Source of the DNA: Clostridia bacterium
GTDB lineage: Bacteria > Bacillota > Clostridia > Oscillospirales > CAG-272
DNA length: 64,000 nt
Assembly: GCA_017447775.1 (NCBI GenBank)
Contig: JAFSMU010000025.1
Location: 158 to 64,157, forward strand
Direction of reading: 5' to 3'
Under the pieces are notes generated by a model, which saw only the letters and a list, made by a program, of their open reading frames with translations, ran no database searches and was not told where the DNA came from. Made by a program: the position numbers and the translations under genes. Numbering within the stretch: the stretch's first letter is position 1; each line of letters opens with the position of its first letter. Positions 20,304 to 64,000 of the stretch are shown here, one piece after another.

Positions 20304-20752
20304 CGCTCTTTTCTTTCGGGGAGCGAAAGAAAAGGAGCGCAAAAGAAAGCTCAAAAGCTTTGTACTCGCCCTATGCGTGCTTCCGTTGTCTGCGACAGCC
20401 GGTTCACGCAAATTCGGGCGAAGGCGGGTAGTCCATCGGACATCAGGCGTTGTATACCTATTCACGAAGCAAAAGCCACAACCCTTGCGGCTCGACTGTT
20501 TCAGAGCGCCTTCGGCGCGAAAGGGCTATGCGGTAGCGGCAGATGCCACGCGTCAACCCGCGATGTTCGCACACCGCCTTCTTTGAGCGCGGAGCGCGAA
20601 TTGAAATAGAGTCTGATGGTATTTTTGGGGAAGAAGAAAAATCGGGCAATATCATAATAAATTAAAGCGTACCCCTCGCGGTTAGCGTAACCCTTTTTAG
20701 CGTGCTTCTTTTGGTACTTTTTCTTGCACGAGCAAGAAAAGTACGCCCGTCC
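20304..20752. repeat. ~450-bp non-coding element with inverted hairpin ends (MITE/REPIN-like)
   Basis: Left end cgctcttttctttcg...cgaaagaaaaggagcg-caaaagaaagc (20304-20350) mirrors right end gcttcttttgg-tactttttcttgc...gcaagaaaagtacg (20704-20745). Bases 20545-20752 recur at 63787-64000. Confidence 0.8.
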
Positions 20753-20799
20753 ATCCCCTCAACCCCACATTTCCAAAAAGCATCACGGAGGTGATACCT

Positions 20800-57246: not shown

Positions 57247-59559
57247 ATGCAGTTATGTTCAAGATGCCATAAGAGAATGGCTGTCGTTTTCGTAACGAAG
57301 CTCGAAAACAACGAATCAAAAAACGAAGGGCTTTGCCTTATATGCGCAAAGCAGCTCGGCATCCCGCAGGTCAGCGAAATACTTGACAAAATGGGGATAG
57401 ACGACGAAGACCTTGAAAATATGGACAAGGAAATGAACGGCCTTATCGCAAGCGAGGGCGAGGATGAGGACAACGACGACGACGGCGACGAAGCCGACAG
57501 CCGCACCCCCTCGATAGATTTTGCCAAGCTTTTCGGCGGACTGCCTTTTGAAAACGCCAAAGGCGGCGAAAAGTCCGAAAAGACGGAAAAGAAAAAGGAA
57601 AAGGGCAAAAAGAAGGACGATCACAAGTTCCTCGGGCAATACTGCCGCGACCTTACCGCCGCCGCGCGCGAGGGTAAACTCGACGCTGTCATCGGGCGCG
57701 ATACCGAGGTCGGCAGAATGATGCAGATACTGACGCGCCGCCAGAAGAACAACCCTTGCCTTATCGGTGAACCGGGCGTCGGCAAGACGGCAGTCGCCGA
57801 GGCGCTGGCGCAGAAGATCGCAAAGGGAGATGTGCCGTACAAGCTGCGCGAAAAAGAGGTGTGGCTCGTCGATATGACGGCGATGGTCGCGGGCACGCAG
57901 TTCCGCGGTCAGTTTGAAAGCCGCATGAAAGGGCTTGTCGACGAAGTCAAGGCGCTGGGAAATATAATCCTTGTCATCGACGAGGTGCATACCATCGTCG
58001 GCGTCGGGGACGCTGAGGGCAGCATGAACGCCGCCAACATCTTAAAACCCGCGCTTTCCCGCGGCGAGATACAGCTCATCGGCGCGACAACGCTTACCGA
58101 ATACCGCAAATACATCGAAAAGGACGCCGCGCTCGAGCGCCGCTTCCAGCCTGTAATGATAGAGGAGCCGAGCATCGAGGACACAAAGAAGATCCTTTAC
58201 GGCATCAAGAAATACTACGAGCAGTACCACAAAATTCATATCTCGCAGGAGATTATCGACCGCACCGTCGAGCTTTCGGAGCGCTACATCACCGACAGAT
58301 ACCTTCCCGACAAGGCGATAGACCTGCTTGACGAGGCGGCGGCATACGTTTCGATGAACAGCCCCGTTATCGAGAGGGTAGAGCTTGCCGAGCGCACGCT
58401 CGACGAGCTGAAAAAGCAGACGGCGGCGCTTGAAGAAGCGGAGATGCCGTCAGACTCCGACGACAATGCGCGTCAGGCTCGCTACGAAAAGATAGCGGAG
58501 CTTCGCTCCTCCACGCTCAAAGGCGAGGAAGAGTACGAAAGACTGAAAAACGAGCTTGCGACGGTGGAGCTTACAGCCGACGCGCTGGCGCACGTCATCG
58601 AGATATGGACGGGCGTTCCCGCCGGCTCGATCACCACAAACGAATACGAGCGCCTGCAGGGGCTTGGCGCAAGGCTCAAAGAGCGCGTCAAAGGTCAGGA
58701 CGCGGCGGTGGACGCGGTAGTACGCGCCATCAAGCGCAACCGCGCGGGAGTTTCGTATAAGCGCAAACCCGCCTCGTTCATCTTCGCGGGGCCTACCGGT
58801 GTGGGCAAAACGGAGCTTGTAAAAGTCCTTGCCGACGATCTGTTCAAAACGCCCGACGCGCTGATAAGGCTCGATATGTCGGAATTTATGGAGAAATTCT
58901 CCGTTTCGCGCATCATAGGCTCGCCCCCGGGGTACGTCGGATATGACGACGCGGGGCAGCTCACCGAAAAGATCCGCCGCAAGCCGTACTCCGTGGTGCT
59001 GTTTGACGAGATCGAAAAGGCGCACCCGGACGTTCTCAACATCCTGCTTCAGATACTCGACGACGGCAGAATAACCGACTCGCACGGCAAGGTCGTCAAA
59101 TTCGAGGACGCGATAATCGTCATGACGACAAACGCCGGCTCATCGACGGGGATGAACACCCCCGGCTTTGGCGAGAGCGCGCAGAAAATGAGCGAGGACC
59201 GCACGATGAAGGCGCTCTCCGAGTTCCTCCGCCCCGAATTCATCAACCGCGTGGATGAGATCATCACGTTCCGCGCGCTCGACATGAACGACTTTGTACG
59301 CATTGCCGAGATCATGCTCGGCGATATGAAAAAGACGCTTGCCGAAAAGGGAATTTCGCTTGTGTGGACGGATGCGGCTGCGAAATACGTCGCTGAAAAA
59401 TCGTTCTCGACGAAATTCGGCGCGCGCAATATGCGCCGCTTCATCAGCCGCAACATCGAGGACGCCGTCGCCGAAAAGATCATCGCGGCAGGGCAGCGCG
59501 GCGTGAAGATGATCTCCGTTGACGCAAAAGACGATGAAATCGTGATCGAAGCCGTATAA
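57247..59559 (+). CDS. Clp protease ATP-binding subunit with N-terminal Zn finger (ClpE-like)
   Basis: CxxC...CxxC N-terminus, two AAA+ modules ([16 protein letters not shown]), PGF loop, FGAR. Confidence 0.93.
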
Positions 59560-59568
59560 AAGAATCAT

Positions 59569-59596
59569 AAACGCTCCTATATGGGGCGTTTTTCTT
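59569..59596. terminator. Terminator between convergent genes
   Basis: aaacgctcc-tatat-ggggcgtttt. Confidence 0.75.
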
Positions 59597-59602
59597 TGCC
59601 CG

Positions 59603-60328
59603 TTACCCGTCAGGCTCCCCTTTGGCGAGCGCAAGATCGAACATCTCGTCGTAATCAAACCCGATATGTGAGTGCCGCGTCGTCGTTTCGTCGTTCCACC
59701 GCCGTCCTATAAGCCATTTTGCGGGAGCGGGAACAAAGCGCCCTCCGTCGCGCCTCCATTCGTCCGTCCGCTTTTGCCGATTGACAGCCTCGATGATCTT
59801 TGACGCCGTATCACCGTCGTGACACACCTCCTCATACGCGTCCCGTGCCTCTCTCTGTCCCGTGTGCCTCGGGTAAGCGTTCCAGAACGCGTCAAATCCG
59901 CCCTGCGCGTCACAAGAGAGAGTTGTATTGTCTTGTCTTGATTCGTCTTGTCTTGTATTGTCTTGTCTTGGTTTGTCTTGTTTTGTTTTGTCTTGTTTTG
60001 AGTACGCAGGCTCCTCAAAAGGCACCCTTGCAGGTACCCTCATAGACTCCTCTGACGGCTCATATTCGCAAACATTTGTTCGCTCTTGCTTGCGCCTTTC
60101 TTCGATGCCGTACCGTGCGTATGCCGCGCCGTCGCGCGAGCGTTTCAGAATAGGGAAAATGAGCGTTGCCGCCATCTTTGCTATGCCGTGGAATTCTTCA
60201 GGCTCCGTGCCGTCTTTTGAATATTTCAGCATAGCGCGCAAAAGCGCCTTGCAGTCGTCGCCGCTCAAAAGTTCAAATGCGTCCCCCCAATCGTAGAAGA
60301 ACGCCATTGCTCTGTCTGTTTTTGCCAT
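59603..60328 (-). CDS. Phage-type replication initiator-like protein (DUF6291-like N-domain)
   Basis: N-terminus FFYDW..FELLS..D...LLRAMLKY...G.EP....AKMA; repetitive linker; C-terminus FDAFWNAYPR...W.RDGGRFVPAPAKWL..RRW.DE typical of phage replication proteins; GAGG RBS. Confidence 0.8.
   Translation of the reverse strand: MAKTDRAMAFFYDWGDAFELLSGDDCKALLRAMLKYSKDGTEPEEFHGIAKMAATLIFPILKRSRDGAAYARYGIEERRKQERTNVCEYEPSEESMRVPARVPFEEPAYSKQDKTKQDKPRQDNTRQDESRQDNTTLSCDAQGGFDAFWNAYPRHTGQREARDAYEEVCHDGDTASKIIEAVNRQKRTDEWRRDGGRFVPAPAKWLIGRRWNDETTTRHSHIGFDYDEMFDLALAKGEPDG
59923..60002. repeat. Tandem pentamer array (TTGTC)x16, degenerate, with 15-nt higher-order period
   Basis: ttgta ttgtc ttgtc ttgat tcgtc ttgtc ttgta ttgtc ttgtc ttggt ttgtc ttgtt ttgtt ttgtc ttgtt ttgag; encodes QDKTK-QDKPR-QDNTR-QDESR-QDNTT. 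Confidence 0.95.
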
Positions 60329-60388
60329 TTATTTAACCTCATTGTTTTTAGTTTTTTCACCGCGGTATACCGCGGATTTTATGCCTAT

Positions 60389-60417
60389 ATTATACCATAA
60401 AATCGGCAAAAAGTCAA
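60389..60417 (-). promoter_or_regulatory. Sigma-A promoter of the DUF6291-like gene
   Basis: TTGACT-17-TATAAT with TGn extension. Confidence 0.8.
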
Positions 60418-60425
60418 TATAAAAA

Positions 60426-60439
60426 CGAACATTTGTTCA
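60426..60439. promoter_or_regulatory. LexA (Cheo/SOS) box
   Basis: CGAACATTTGTTCA matches the Firmicutes GAAC-N4-GTTC consensus, 8 bp upstream of the -35. A second near-consensus box CGAACAAATGTTTG lies at 60069-60082 inside the gene. Confidence 0.75.
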
Positions 60440-60570
60440 GAGTCCATGCCGAGCGACGAGCCGAAACGGCGCGATTTTTTTTGCCGAAAAACCGTATTGT
60501 TATTGACTTATCCGCGATTTGCGCTATAATGAATTTATAAAGAAATAATCTATTTTAATGCGAGGTAGAT

Positions 60571-63500
60571 ATGCTTTACAAAAAGAAATTCGAAAAAGAT
60601 TTGTCGCGTGAGCTTTTTGAAAATCCCACGTCGGAATTTCGCGCAGCGCCGTTCTGGGCGTGGAACTGCGAGCTTGACGCAAAGCTTCTGAAAAAAGAGA
60701 TCGAATATATGAAAGAGATGGGCTTTGGCGGCTTCCACATGCACCCGCGCGTCGGAATGTCGACGGAGTATCTTTCCGATGAGTTTATGGCGCTTATCCG
60801 CGAGTGCGTGGAGAAGGCGAAAAGCGAGGATATGCTTGCGTATCTTTACGACGAGGACAAATGGCCCTCGGGCTTTGCGGGCGGCTACAACACAAAGAAT
60901 GTTGAAAACCGCCAAAAGATGCTCTTTTTCACATCCGAGCCGTACAACGACGGCACACTTACGGTGGATGATGACATCAAAAACTCCCGCTTAGACCTGC
61001 CGGAGTCAAAATATTATCTGCTTTCCTGCTATGACGTTGCGCTTGACGAGCGCGGCAATATGACGTCGTACCGCCGCATAGGACTTGACGAAAAAGCCGA
61101 GGGGCGCAAGTGGTTTGCGTATATGGAATACGCGACTCCGACGCCGTGGTTTAACGGCGAGGCTTACGCCGACACGCTCTCCGCCCCCGTTATCGAAAAC
61201 TTTGTAAAGATCACGCACGAGCGTTACAAGGAGTGCGTCGGCGACGAGTTTGACCGTGCCGTGCCGTCGATTTTCACCGACGAGCCGCAGTTCCGCCAGA
61301 AGCAGACGCTCAAAACCCCGTTTGACACGCGCGGCGCTGTCGTTCCGTTCACGTCCGACTTTGACATTACCTTCAAAAAAGCATACGGCTACTCCATTCT
61401 CGACACGCTCCCCGAGGTGTTCTTCGAGCGCGCTGACGGGATCGCTTCCCGCGCCCGCTACCACTTCCACGACCATATAGCCGAAAGGTTCGCCCACGCG
61501 TTTTCAGACACTGTCGGCAAGTGGTGCGAAAATAACGGCATCGCCCTTACCGGCCACATGATGCAGGAGCCGACGCTGTTGTCGCAGACGGCGTCCCTTG
61601 GCGACTGTATGCGCTCCTACCGCGGATTCACCATTCCCGGCATCGATATGCTTTGCGACAGGCTTGAACTTACGACGGCAAAACAGTGCCAGAGCGCCGT
61701 TCACCAATACGGCAGGGAAGGCATGATGAGCGAGCTTTACGGCGTTACGAACTGGGATTTTGACTTCAAGGGGCACAAACTGCAAGGCGACTGGCAGGCG
61801 GCGCTCGGCGTTACGCTGCGCGTGCCGCATCTTTTCTGGGTTTCGATGCGCGGCGAGGCAAAGCGCGATTATCCCGCGTCGATAGGATATCAGTCCCCGT
61901 GGTACAAGGAATACAAATATATAGAAGACCATTTTGCGAGAGTCAACACCGCGATGACGCGCGGCACGCCCGACGTGAAGATCGCCGTCGTTCACCCCGT
62001 TGAATCGTACTGGCTCCGCTTCGGCCCGACCTCGCAGACGACGCTGTGGCGCGAGGAGCTTGAAGTCCGCTTTGACGAAATGATAAAATGGCTGCTTTTT
62101 GCAACGCTTGACTTCGACTATATATGCGAATCGCTCCTGCCGTCGCAGTACGGCGGCGCTGACGGCGGATTTAATGTCGGCAAGATGAAATACGACGCCG
62201 TCGTCGTGCCGTCCCTTCACACGATAAGAAAGACGACGCTTGACGCGCTTGAACAGTTTGCAAACGCGGGCGGCAAGGTCATATTCATGGGCGGCGCGCC
62301 CGAATACGTCGACGCGCTCCCGTCGGACAGCGCGAAAAAGCTTGCCGAAAGATGCGAAAGCATCGAATGGTCGCGCTCGGCTCTCATCGGCTCGCTTGAA
62401 GGGCTTCGCACCGTTTCAGTCCGCGCACCGAGCGGGGAATTTTCGGACAACATCATCTATCAGTCGAGAAACGACGGCGCGCGCAAGTATATCTTCCTTT
62501 GCCACGCAAAAAAGCCGCGCAACGCGGACGTTGAAATGCCCGATCCGTTCACGGTCGGCATCGCGGGCGAGTGGAAAGTGACGCTGCTCGATACGCTGAC
62601 GGGCAAAAGAGTGCCGCTTGCGGCAAAGTACGTCGGCGGCCGCACCGAGATCTTCTGGGAATGCTGCGTGTACGACTCGATCTTGCTTGAACTCGAAGCG
62701 GGCAGGCGCGAGCTTGGCGAGTGCCTCGCATACCCGCGCTACGATAAGGAAACTTACGTTTTCGGCGGCGTAAAATACACCCTCTCCGAGCCGAACGTGC
62801 TTCTTCTCGATATGCCGCGCTATTCGCTGAACGGCGGGGAAGTTTGCGGCCCCGAGGAGATACTCCGCGCCGACGACAAGATACGCGACGCGCTCGGCAT
62901 ACGCCACCGCGACGGCGGAATGGTTCAGCCGTGGGTATCCGCCGCCGACAAAAACCCGAAAGATATCGTAACGCTGATCTACGATTTTGACTCCGACATC
63001 GAATACGACGGCGCGCGCCTCGCGCTTGAATCCGTCGAGTACGCGACGATAAAATTCAACGGAGAGGACGTAGATGCGACGCCGGACGGCTATTACGTCG
63101 ATATCGACTCGATCAAGACGGTGAAGATGCCAAAGATCAGAAAGGGCAAAAACGAGCTTTGCGTAACGTATCGCTTCGGGGACGTAACGCAGCTTGAATC
63201 GATGTACCTGCTCGGCAGCTTTGGCGTTGAAAGTATTGGCGAGGGCGCGAGAATAACGGCGCTGCCCGACGTTCTGTATTTCGGCGATATAACAAGGCAG
63301 GGACTGCCTTATTACGGCGGGAACGTGACGTATCACATAACGTACAAGGGGAAGGCGGGCGCTATCGCCGTGTCCAAATTCCGCGGCGCTCTGATAGCCG
63401 TCGACGTTGACGGGACGCGCGCGGGGATAATTTCGCCAACGCCGCACACACTGCCGCTTGACCTTGGCGACGGCGAGCATACGATCGACCTCACGCTGTT

Positions 63501-63654
63501 CGGCAACCGCTTCAACACATTCGGCGCGCTGCATAACGTGGATAAATTCCGCTGGGCAGGGCCGGGATGCTGGCGCTCAAAGGGAAATTATTTCACCTAC
63601 GAACATCTTGTGCGCGAAACGGGAATTCTGACCGCACCGAGAGTGCTTGAATGA
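60571..63654 (+). CDS. Large cytoplasmic glycoside hydrolase (GH106/alpha-L-rhamnosidase-like)
   Basis: PFWAWN, MGFGGFHMHPR.G, LYDEDKWPSG.AGG, FTDEP, PGID, SELYG, KRDYP; no signal peptide; promoter TTGACT-16-TATAAT at 60503-60530. Confidence 0.8.
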   Translation: MLYKKKFEKDLSRELFENPTSEFRAAPFWAWNCELDAKLLKKEIEYMKEMGFGGFHMHPRVGMSTEYLSDEFMALIRECVEKAKSEDMLAYLYDEDKWPSGFAGGYNTKNVENRQKMLFFTSEPYNDGTLTVDDDIKNSRLDLPESKYYLLSCYDVALDERGNMTSYRRIGLDEKAEGRKWFAYMEYATPTPWFNGEAYADTLSAPVIENFVKITHERYKECVGDEFDRAVPSIFTDEPQFRQKQTLKTPFDTRGAVVPFTSDFDITFKKAYGYSILDTLPEVFFERADGIASRARYHFHDHIAERFAHAFSDTVGKWCENNGIALTGHMMQEPTLLSQTASLGDCMRSYRGFTIPGIDMLCDRLELTTAKQCQSAVHQYGREGMMSELYGVTNWDFDFKGHKLQGDWQAALGVTLRVPHLFWVSMRGEAKRDYPASIGYQSPWYKEYKYIEDHFARVNTAMTRGTPDVKIAVVHPVESYWLRFGPTSQTTLWREELEVRFDEMIKWLLFATLDFDYICESLLPSQYGGADGGFNVGKMKYDAVVVPSLHTIRKTTLDALEQFANAGGKVIFMGGAPEYVDALPSDSAKKLAERCESIEWSRSALIGSLEGLRTVSVRAPSGEFSDNIIYQSRNDGARKYIFLCHAKKPRNADVEMPDPFTVGIAGEWKVTLLDTLTGKRVPLAAKYVGGRTEIFWECCVYDSILLELEAGRRELGECLAYPRYDKETYVFGGVKYTLSEPNVLLLDMPRYSLNGGEVCGPEEILRADDKIRDALGIRHRDGGMVQPWVSAADKNPKDIVTLIYDFDSDIEYDGARLALESVEYATIKFNGEDVDATPDGYYVDIDSIKTVKMPKIRKGKNELCVTYRFGDVTQLESMYLLGSFGVESIGEGARITALPDVLYFGDITRQGLPYYGGNVTYHITYKGKAGAIAVSKFRGALIAVDVDGTRAGIISPTPHTLPLDLGDGEHTIDLTLFGNRFNTFGALHNVDKFRWAGPGCWRSKGNYFTYEHLVRETGILTAPRVLE

Positions 63655-63659
63655 AAATG

Positions 63660-63685
63660 AAAACGGCGGGAAACCGCCGTTTTTT
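63660..63685 (+). terminator. Intrinsic terminator
   Basis: aaaacggcgg-gaaa-ccgccgtttttt. Confidence 0.9.
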
Positions 63686-63694
63686 GATGTAATC

Positions 63695-64000
63695 GAAAGC
63701 CGCTTCCGTCTCCGCCTGCGCTTCGCTTGCCCCATCGCTACGCTCTGCGGAAATTGCCGCTCTCCCAGCCCTTCGGGCGTGGGACATCCCACACGTCCGC
63801 TCGCAATGTTCGCACACCGCCCTCTTTGAGCGCCGCAGGCGCGAATTGAAATAGAGTCTGATGGTACGTTTGGGGAAGAGTAAAAATCGGTCAATATCTA
63901 AATAAATTAAAGCGTACCCTTCGCGGTTAGCGTAACCCTTTTTTTGCGTGCTTCTTTTGGTACTTTTCTTTCACGCCGGAAAGAAAAGTACACGCGTCCC
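63695..64000. repeat. Second copy of the dispersed intergenic element
   Basis: 63787-64000 aligns with 20545-20752 (atgttcgcacaccgcc...gcgcgaattgaaatagagtctgatggta...aataaattaaagcgtaccc.tcgcggttagcgtaaccctttt...gcgtgcttcttttggtactttt...aagaaaagtac); the left part differs. Confidence 0.9.

Follow-up and report, generated by a model that had tools for sequence, protein, structure and literature searches.

Results

In a 64,000-nucleotide stretch of DNA from a gut Clostridia bacterium (the window; G000:C23:158-64157, from genome G000 of 1.79 Mb in 35 contigs, 95% complete), a single phage-type gene stands alone among host genes, and we tentatively read its locus as an orphan module of phage descent, origin plus initiator, that LexA gates, an interpretation to which we give somewhat less than an even chance. 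The gene is an open reading frame (ORF) of 241 amino acids (aa) at 59603..60328 on the minus strand, with origin-like repeats in its own coding sequence and a LexA-type box above its promoter. The gene is genuine and its control out of the ordinary, but sister species do not share it, and we assign it no role in the host.

The protein and its family

An earlier sequence-only reading of this DNA had described an intact, solitary DUF6291 gene, and so we find it: the ORF has no internal stops and matches Pfam DUF6291 (PF19808) at aa 10-65 with 37.7 bits, above the gathering cut-off of 27.2. Three PHROG families match aa ~73-219 (9474, E 9.1e-21; 9327, E 2.5e-19; 270, E 7.7e-15); their labels, 'replication initiation' and 'primosomal', are annotations of the families and not a functional test. 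The alignment of 50 full-length homologs, 48 of which also match DUF6291, resolves a conserved N-terminal domain, a low-complexity linker, a conserved C-terminal domain with the consensus FxxFWxAYP ... W..DGGRYIP.PATWLN..RWEDE and often a short FDxDEFF tail, and none of the 50 has a Pfam match in the C-terminal domain. In the window protein, the N-terminal DUF6291 domain covers aa 1-88 (60065..60328, minus strand), with helices at 12-20, 23-39 and 49-87, while the C-terminal domain, recognised from the PHROG matches, the alignment and the structural model, covers aa 141-215 (59684..59908, minus strand; FxxFWxAYP...W..DGGRF.P.PA.WL..RRW.DE). The tail motif IGFDYDEMFDLALAKGE (59615..59668, minus strand), seen in the family alignment and in the model, forms a terminal helix at aa 226-236. 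The AlphaFold2 model, with a mean predicted local distance difference test score (pLDDT) of 80.3 and a predicted template modelling score (pTM) of 0.45, contains two confident all-helical domains (aa 12-87 and 142-207, pLDDT ~90 or more), separated by a linker at ~aa 91-140 in which 10-residue blocks average 42-59.

DUF6291 proteins are common in phages and prophages. A profile search returned 16,452 cluster representatives at E<=1e-3, and the nearest Atlas clusters are DUF6291 proteins, mostly viral. The 102 matching phage records, matched mostly via the C-terminal domain, carry annotations from 'replication initiation protein' through 'antirepressor' and 'HTH protein'. In two homologs from mobile-element contexts (L040 and L041), the gene comes after integrase/excisionase genes and directly before a gene for a DnaC-like helicase loader. 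The best match of the family profile in a PDB sequence search had E 0.14, neither the window protein nor the aligned homologs matched a Pfam organiser family, NCBIfam gave no match for three DUF6291 proteins, and the literature searched holds no mention of the family.

Origin-like repeats within the gene

Five direct repeats of the AAGACAAGACAA type (minus strand), at a spacing of 15 bp, occupy 59923..60001 in the linker-coding part of the ORF, of which they form the stretch of lowest GC content (0.34). This array of putative iterons is probably the cognate origin. Tandem repeats reached a Tandem Repeats Finder (TRF) score >=30 in 21 of 24 family genes, each of these with a mid-gene array and a few with an extra repeat elsewhere, and a score >=50 in 19 of 24; L061, L075 and L048 have no tandem repeat at all. 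The background in G000 is 101 TRF regions in 1.79 Mb, or 0.04 per gene length of 726 nt. The repeat units vary among homologs. One distant homolog (L040, 30% protein identity) nevertheless carries the AAGACAAGACA unit of the window gene, at a 12-bp period and in another frame (KDKT vs RQDNT), and because the frame differs, the unit is, on this comparison, conserved at the DNA level and not at the peptide level. The sequence-only reading had overlooked these intragenic repeats, as well as the paralog and the shared operator-promoter design described below.

A near-consensus promoter with two LexA-type boxes

The gene is preceded by a predicted sigma-A-type promoter, TTGACT-17-TGgTATAAT, with an extended -10 and 11/12 consensus matches (60389..60417, minus strand). 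Upstream of its -35 stands O1, a LexA-type box of the form GAAC-N4-GTTC (TGAACAAATGTTCG on the minus strand), which can be counted as a 14-mer at 60426-60439, 8 nt above the -35, or as a 12-mer at 60427-60438, 9 nt above it. A second box, O2 (CGAACAAATGTTTG on the minus strand; 60069-60082), differs from the consensus by one mismatch and lies inside the ORF at codons 83-87, 68 bp ahead of the repeat array; the two boxes share an identical 11-mer and are spaced 357 bp apart. The 5' leader contains a perfect 16-bp palindrome, CCGCGGTATACCGCGG, at 60360-60375, with a predicted RNA hairpin of -11 kcal/mol (z -2.28) and a terminator-like appearance on the plus strand as well; it does not occur in the leaders of the related loci on contigs C4 and C20 of G000 or in genome G019, and one base of its centre is missing in sequencing run X5. 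The promoter, the box 8 bp above its -35, the near-consensus box within the ORF and the palindrome had all been noted from sequence alone, and each is borne out at these positions.

O2 is conserved at the DNA level. It lies in a 15-mer, GCGAACAAAYGTTTG, that the window gene and its short paralog on contig C4 have in common as an isolated match, beyond the stretch that BLAST can align, and the two genes read it in different frames (ERTNVC in the window gene, GEQTFE in the paralog). In the conspecific strain represented by contig L090, O2 is unchanged although flanking codons differ. On these comparisons, O2 is conserved across frames.

The assignment of GAAC-N4-GTTC to LexA of Firmicutes agrees with the published operator of Bacillus and Clostridia, GAAC-N4-GTT[CT], as given in the available text of PMC4234289. 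Scoring of the operator core AACA[AT][AT]TGTT yielded 10 sites in G000. One is at the lexA promoter, where it overlaps the -35 region; one lies upstream of a gene for a Y-family polymerase, where further box-like sites adjoin; O1 and O2 account for two; one precedes the C4 paralog, one a XhlA/holin cassette on contig C20 and two a terminase-portal-capsid cluster on contig C30; and two more are intragenic, with poorer ends. A second LexA-like gene (S24, 205 aa; G000:C26:29665-31734, L002) is the first gene of an operon that continues with a 77-aa ORF and a Y-family polymerase gene; a box lies between its -35 and -10, and judged by its gene order this operon looks like a umuDC-like SOS mutagenesis cassette.

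The arrangement of box and promoter also recurs. The design searched for, a box followed after 7-11 nt by TTGACTTTT, matched three times in G000, once in G019 (before a DUF6291 gene) and once in G018 (before lexA) among 41 genomes of the bacterial family, whereas the reversed pattern, used as a control, matched nowhere in G000 and twice across the 41 genomes. The three matches in G000 drive the initiator gene, the C4 paralog and the XhlA/holin cassette. Because the motif is found at lexA, in G000 and in its relative G018, and at two Y-family polymerase promoters, and the box-to-promoter design is fixed, LexA control of the initiator gene is well inferred from sequence.

A short paralog and probable exchange between copies

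Contig C4 of the same genome opens inside an AAGAC-type repeat array like that of the window gene, and about 60 nt on follow a box, an initiator-type promoter and a 142-aa gene; the assembly is missing part of this locus (G000:C4:1-656, L009). The paralog has its own LexA box, promoter and internal box, and it consists of the N-terminal domain (61% identity to the window protein over aa 1-84) and the C-terminal tail, without the linker repeats and the C-terminal domain. The conspecific contig L090, 97.6% identical over 10.6 kb, carries a full-length gene at the same clpC-side locus, and the first 129 nt of this gene (L090:1-129) are 99% identical to the C4 copy (G000:C4:296-424). Because the window gene and the C4 paralog share only ~8 identical bases at the switch point, we read the L090 gene as a real recombinant and not as a mis-join, which suggests N-domain exchange or gene conversion between copies.

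Solitary boxed genes in another genus

We looked for boxes upstream of homologs at 25 loci in related genomes (<=2 mismatches, 300 nt searched), at 17 metagenomic or viral loci with a callable ORF and at 27 loci from the bacterial family. An upstream box with an A/T-rich centre was found at 2 of these 69 other loci, both of them solitary short genes in one other genus. The gene in G019 (149 aa; L082:8363-9112) has as neighbours Lgt, FolD, a dockerin protein and a PPIase, and that in G648 (184 aa; L163:7100-7975) stands among shikimate enzymes, RarA/MgsA, a HAD hydrolase and LexA, directly next to rarA/mgsA and two genes away from lexA. Upstream of both genes come tandem repeats, a cluster of five DnaA-box-like sites, a LexA box and an initiator-type promoter. 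Solitary boxed DUF6291 genes number four in total, in three species and at four different loci, each with origin-like DNA. The sequence-only reading had proposed a survey for LexA boxes and for conserved synteny: the boxes do recur, rarely, and synteny is not conserved. From these comparisons, recurrence at four loci is the best argument for a module kept as a unit, and patchiness the best argument for a mobile or transient one.

Distribution and variation among strains

A protein search matched 5 of 61 related genomes, G000 included. PF19808 was found in 6 of the 61 and in 53 of 401 genomes of the bacterial family, and the family profile in 21 of 399 genomes of the class, while the window gene's own 90% cluster comprises 19 contigs. 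Strains that carry the intact gene at the same locus come from several studies, and at ~2.4% divergence between strains none of its parts (ORF, both boxes, repeats, promoter) is disrupted. In the DNA run X5 one contig bridges the gene; contigs of runs X8 and X9 cover parts of it, with no indel within the covered ORF, the repeat stretch having been skipped by the tool. Run X8 is an RNA library whose contigs reach into the gene, but it may contain DNA. In the RNA run X18, considered for its contigs and not for RNA level, clpC and the gene on the other side are covered, 59765-60517 is uncovered, and the contigs continue into unlike sequence, a pattern that in contigs speaks neither for silence of the gene nor for its absence. 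Patchy presence with decay had been named beforehand as the mark of a prophage remnant; the patchiness is there, with the gene found in none of three congeners, and the decay is not, as the gene is intact across strains.

The insertion and its neighbours

The gene occupies a segment of 1,011 bp (59560..60570) that spans from the stop of a clpC-like gene to the start of a putative glycoside hydrolase (GH) gene. In the congener G002 the GH start codon lies within ~10 nt of the clpC stop, an empty site, and in G001 the junction holds instead an XRE regulator and a gene with a prepilin-type N-terminal domain (L019:2400-3460, G001:C88); in G003 the two flanks are on separate contigs, so the junction is uninformative. 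Because the site is empty in G002 and carries other cargo in G001, we take the initiator gene to be a 1,011-bp insertion in a variable junction that is, by this comparison, a cargo hotspot. The ends of the insert bear no flanking direct repeats or target-site duplication that we could find, and of six tyrosine-recombinase matches in G000 none is on the initiator contig. No integrase, loader, repressor or structural gene occurs in the 17 kb upstream of the gene or on to the contig end, in keeping with the absence reported earlier; the 17 kb hold host genes, among them those for NrdR, RuvCAB, EcfA/T, TruA and CvpA.

The left neighbour (57247-59559) encodes a ClpC-type double AAA+ ATPase, as the sequence-only reading had it. 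Its call of a glycosidase on the right is plausible and not firm, since the 1027-aa protein has a weak GH106 match of 26 bits, below the cut-off of 29. A terminator-like hairpin at 59569..59591, with a 9-pair stem and then a T run on the plus strand, is common to the converging clpC-like and initiator genes. An Rfam scan of 59000-64000 gave one sub-threshold match, far from the initiator gene.

Two further features of this region may be recorded. Over 28 nt the initiator promoter (60400-60427) and the divergent GH promoter (60493-60520) form an imperfect inverted repeat, 75% complementary, and the GH gene has a promoter of its own only at loci with the insert. A dispersed repeat family of ~170-240 bp, with copies 84-94% identical, is represented in the window at 63758-63993 and 20543-20758, at C4:3231-3464 and on contigs C3, C5, C14, C17, C24, C30 and C35; its copies are often at contig ends and probably cause assembly breaks.

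Other phage-derived loci with LexA-type boxes

Two other loci of G000 combine phage-derived genes with LexA-type boxes. A tail-less cluster on C30 (G000:C30:7588-15515, L007) encodes TerS, TerL, a P22-like portal, a 171-aa ORF, a major-head-like protein and a 645-aa ORF; host dxs flanks it on one side and a deaminase/radical-SAM pair on the other, and the boxes behind which it lies are at C30:14993, 15717 and 16014. The cluster is syntenic in the congener G001 at ~72% protein identity, similar to that of the flanking dxs, and present in G028 and G023, in all cases with boxes, and from its gene content it may be a domesticated SOS-induced particle or an element like a gene transfer agent (GTA). 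The XhlA-like and holin cassette on C20 (G000:C20:19109-19850; L008:10226-10849) is solitary, lies between glutathione peroxidase and esterase genes, and has a LexA box and promoter of the initiator type; G001 and G028 have the cassette too, at 68% and 46% identity, each with the box. Because protein and PF19808 searches found no DUF6291 gene in G001, G028 or G023, the initiator does not appear to be a conserved part of this capsid and lysis set. The boxed capsid-terminase and XhlA/holin loci, conserved across genera, merit a study of their own. Elsewhere in G000, two LexA-type boxes, CAAACATACGTTTG and CAAACTTTTGTTCG, lie in the murG-ftsZ spacer (G000:C1:82770-82825), 175-230 bp upstream of ftsZ.

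Discussion

We propose that a phage-type replicon has been left stranded in the chromosome with nothing but its core, the 1-kb insert: an initiator gene that contains its own origin and would be gated by the host SOS repressor. In an undamaged cell, LexA would occupy O1, and perhaps O2, and keep the strong promoter shut; upon DNA damage, LexA would be cleaved and the initiator protein made. Its N-terminal DUF6291 domain would then bind the repeats within its own gene, much like SPP1 gp38 and lactococcal Rep2009 at their intragenic origins. With no phage helicase loader at hand, any initiation would have to rely on host loading factors, and the outcome could be binding or firing of the origin in situ, with local over-replication, or mere occupation of the repeats. 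The module would derive from a temperate-phage lineage and have been inserted in this species only, staying intact in its strains. LexA repression, binding of the iterons by the N-domain and subsequent initiation are the steps that we infer.

A number of observations weigh against this proposal. The bare GAAC-N4-GTTC occurs once in the window against 1.27 expected, with at least one occurrence in 74 of 100 shuffles, and the 10 core sites in G000 compare with a mean of 8.9 in 20 third-order Markov simulations; the significance of the boxes rests on position and comparison, not on count. There is no box within 400 bp of recA or uvrB in G000, and O1, upstream of the -35, does not overlap the core promoter, which makes the strength of repression uncertain. 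Among the homologs, an upstream box was found at 2 of the 25 related-genome loci (G019, at -81 and with the full design; L061, at -176, weak and with a GC-rich centre), at none of the 17 metagenomic or viral loci, some of which had little upstream sequence, and at 1 of the 27 loci of the bacterial family (G648, of the same genus as G019). As regards the origin, the 15-bp spacing of the repeats is not helically phased, and no DnaA box (<=1 mismatch) was found in 59300-60800 or in the regions scanned at the C4 paralog and at the C20 cassette. No helicase loader was found in the window beside the gene, and a search of G000 with a phage DnaC-like loader gave a single weak match (E 9e-7), interrupted by one stop. 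Nor did structure comparison lead to a characterised initiator: Foldseek gave no match in the PDB at E<=0.001, the best hit of VIA-align (wide) was a designed fibre at Z 6.1, under the noise level quoted for helical models, and hhalign of the family profile with SPP1 gp38 returned a probability of 0.27%. Finally, the gene was not found in any of the three congeners (88%, 63% and 91% complete), and any protein match was seen in only 2 of 36 sampled genomes of the family. Outside the swapped N-domain, G000 and L090 differ by 16 substitutions, 12 nonsynonymous and 4 synonymous, mostly in the linker and tail, with only two in the C-domain (one of each kind); this gives no sign of purifying selection between the two, at numbers too few to judge. 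The sequence-only reading had gone further and suggested a factor captured by the host, and that claim finds no conservation behind it: none of the three congeners has the gene, the junction is empty or holds other cargo, and 12 of the 16 substitutions are nonsynonymous.

These last points are also what one would expect of an inert prophage remnant, the leftover of a LexA-governed temperate phage that is intact only as the insertion is young and whose expression after damage has no consequence. The patchy distribution (0 of 3 congeners; 5 of 61 relatives including G000; PF19808 in 53 of 401 genomes), the variable clpC/GH junction, the preponderance of nonsynonymous changes and the missing loader all fit such an origin. 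We consider it unlikely, if still a serious contender, in view of an ORF, two boxes, repeats and promoter that are intact at ~2.4% divergence, of an O2 kept across frames in the C4 paralog, and of four solitary boxed genes in three species and at four loci, at which only this gene and origin-like DNA are left, an outcome unexpected from random decay. The paralog, with its N-domain and tail and neither linker repeats nor C-domain, has the shape of a dominant-negative protein, which raises the prospect of an anti-phage decoy resembling phage-encoded resistance (PER): related phages, incoming or induced, would find their replication machinery titrated or poisoned by the chromosomal origin repeats together with the initiator made under SOS and the truncated paralog. 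The idea has a direct experimental precedent: in lactococcal P335-type phages a PER phenotype arises from the origin region and the replisome organiser in trans, so far as the available text of PMC8965321 describes it. The full-length L090 gene with its paralog-type N-domain suggests that N-domains are exchanged between copies. Set against this are the lack of any PADLOC family among seven proteins scanned (the initiator, the paralog, the G019 gene and four neighbours of other loci), the lack of a known cognate phage, and the DnaA-box clusters beside the repeats in the other genus, which point to initiation and not to titration; a decoy is, in our judgement, quite unlikely.

It is decidedly improbable that the gene is not controlled by LexA or does not encode an initiator. 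The boxes could be there by chance, their count being at chance level, or could serve another factor, such as a second LexA-like protein activating from about -50, near which O1 is centred, a classical activator position; G000 does have a second LexA-like gene, and the LexA homologue of phage GIL01 activates late genes according to the available text of PMC6182141. The DUF6291 protein could likewise be a transcription regulator, as 'replication initiation' in PHROG is an annotation and not a test. A near-consensus promoter, however, needs no activator, the motif overlaps the lexA -35 region, the second LexA-like gene is in a umuD-like position ahead of a Y-family polymerase, and the phage homologs directly precede DnaC-like loaders. 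Least credible of all, in our estimate, is an organiser of replication restart in the manner of PriA, a damage-induced protein that would load the host replisome at stalled forks independently of any origin. The boxed G648 gene, beside rarA/mgsA and close to lexA, would suit this role, but that neighbourhood is a single case, the activity of gp38 requires its own loader and helicase, which are absent at the window locus, the window protein has no homology to gp38, and the gene is not conserved in relatives.

If the origin-initiator interpretation holds, the locus gives a testable model for DUF6291, in which the N-domain binds repeats embedded in its own gene, these being the origin. Direct gating of a solitary chromosomal replicon core by LexA would be an unusual regulatory state, one that recurs in two genera. 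A module that fires in situ would amount to an auxiliary origin inducible by damage; one that does not would provide a clean natural example of a PER-type decoy or of phage modules left behind.

Comparison with known systems

Replisome organisers offer the closest analogy for the arrangement of protein and repeats. According to the available text of the sources, SPP1 gp38 binds repeats of oriL, which is located within gene 38 (PMC6316719), and ORF13 of lactococcal phage TP901-1 and Rep2009 of Tuc2009 bind repeats inside their own genes (PMC8965321). Like these two-part origin-binding proteins, the window gene has repeats in its own coding sequence, in the linker part, and a loader gene follows in the DUF6291 phage homologs L040 and L041. 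Unlike them, it shows no sequence relation to gp38 and belongs to no Pfam organiser family, and it is chromosomal, solitary and LexA-boxed, with no loader or helicase beside it.

The regulation finds a parallel in GIL01 of Bacillus thuringiensis, where, in the available text of PMC4551915 and PMC6182141, host LexA represses early promoters that control replication genes, through Firmicutes SOS boxes, and damage derepresses those genes. GIL01 is otherwise a complete linear plasmid-prophage with protein-primed replication and the corepressor gp7, in contrast to a single orphan gene of an unrelated family.

Iteron-type plasmid origins consist of DnaA boxes, iterons and a rep gene. The same order is seen in G019 and G648, with a DnaA-box cluster, tandem repeats and a boxed DUF6291 gene. 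The window gene departs from it in having no DnaA box nearby and its repeats inside the ORF, and the element is integrated, with no partition or mobilisation genes seen.

The GTA of Bartonella (BaGTA), as far as the available text describes it, pairs a domesticated origin module for run-off replication with loci for capsid, packaging and lysis that come from another phage. In G000, too, a phage-type origin-initiator module, a capsid-terminase cluster and a lysis cassette are found apart from one another, and LexA boxes predict the same control for all three. It is conceivable, if very improbable, that the orphan initiator fires in situ upon SOS induction and over-replicates the nearby chromosome while the LexA signal switches on the tail-less capsid/terminase cluster and the XhlA/holin cassette, the whole amounting to a dispersed, LexA-synchronised GTA-like system in gut Clostridia, akin to the run-off-replication module of BaGTA; the short boxed genes with DnaA boxes in the other genus would then be damage-inducible auxiliary origins of the same kind. 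Unlike BaGTA, the parts are not co-conserved, as the capsid cluster occurs in G001, G028 and G023 and the lysis cassette in G001 and G028, none with a DUF6291 gene found, and in G000 the three loci are on different contigs. What sets the window locus apart from the organisers, from GIL01 and from BaGTA alike is that it is a single solitary gene of an uncharacterised family.

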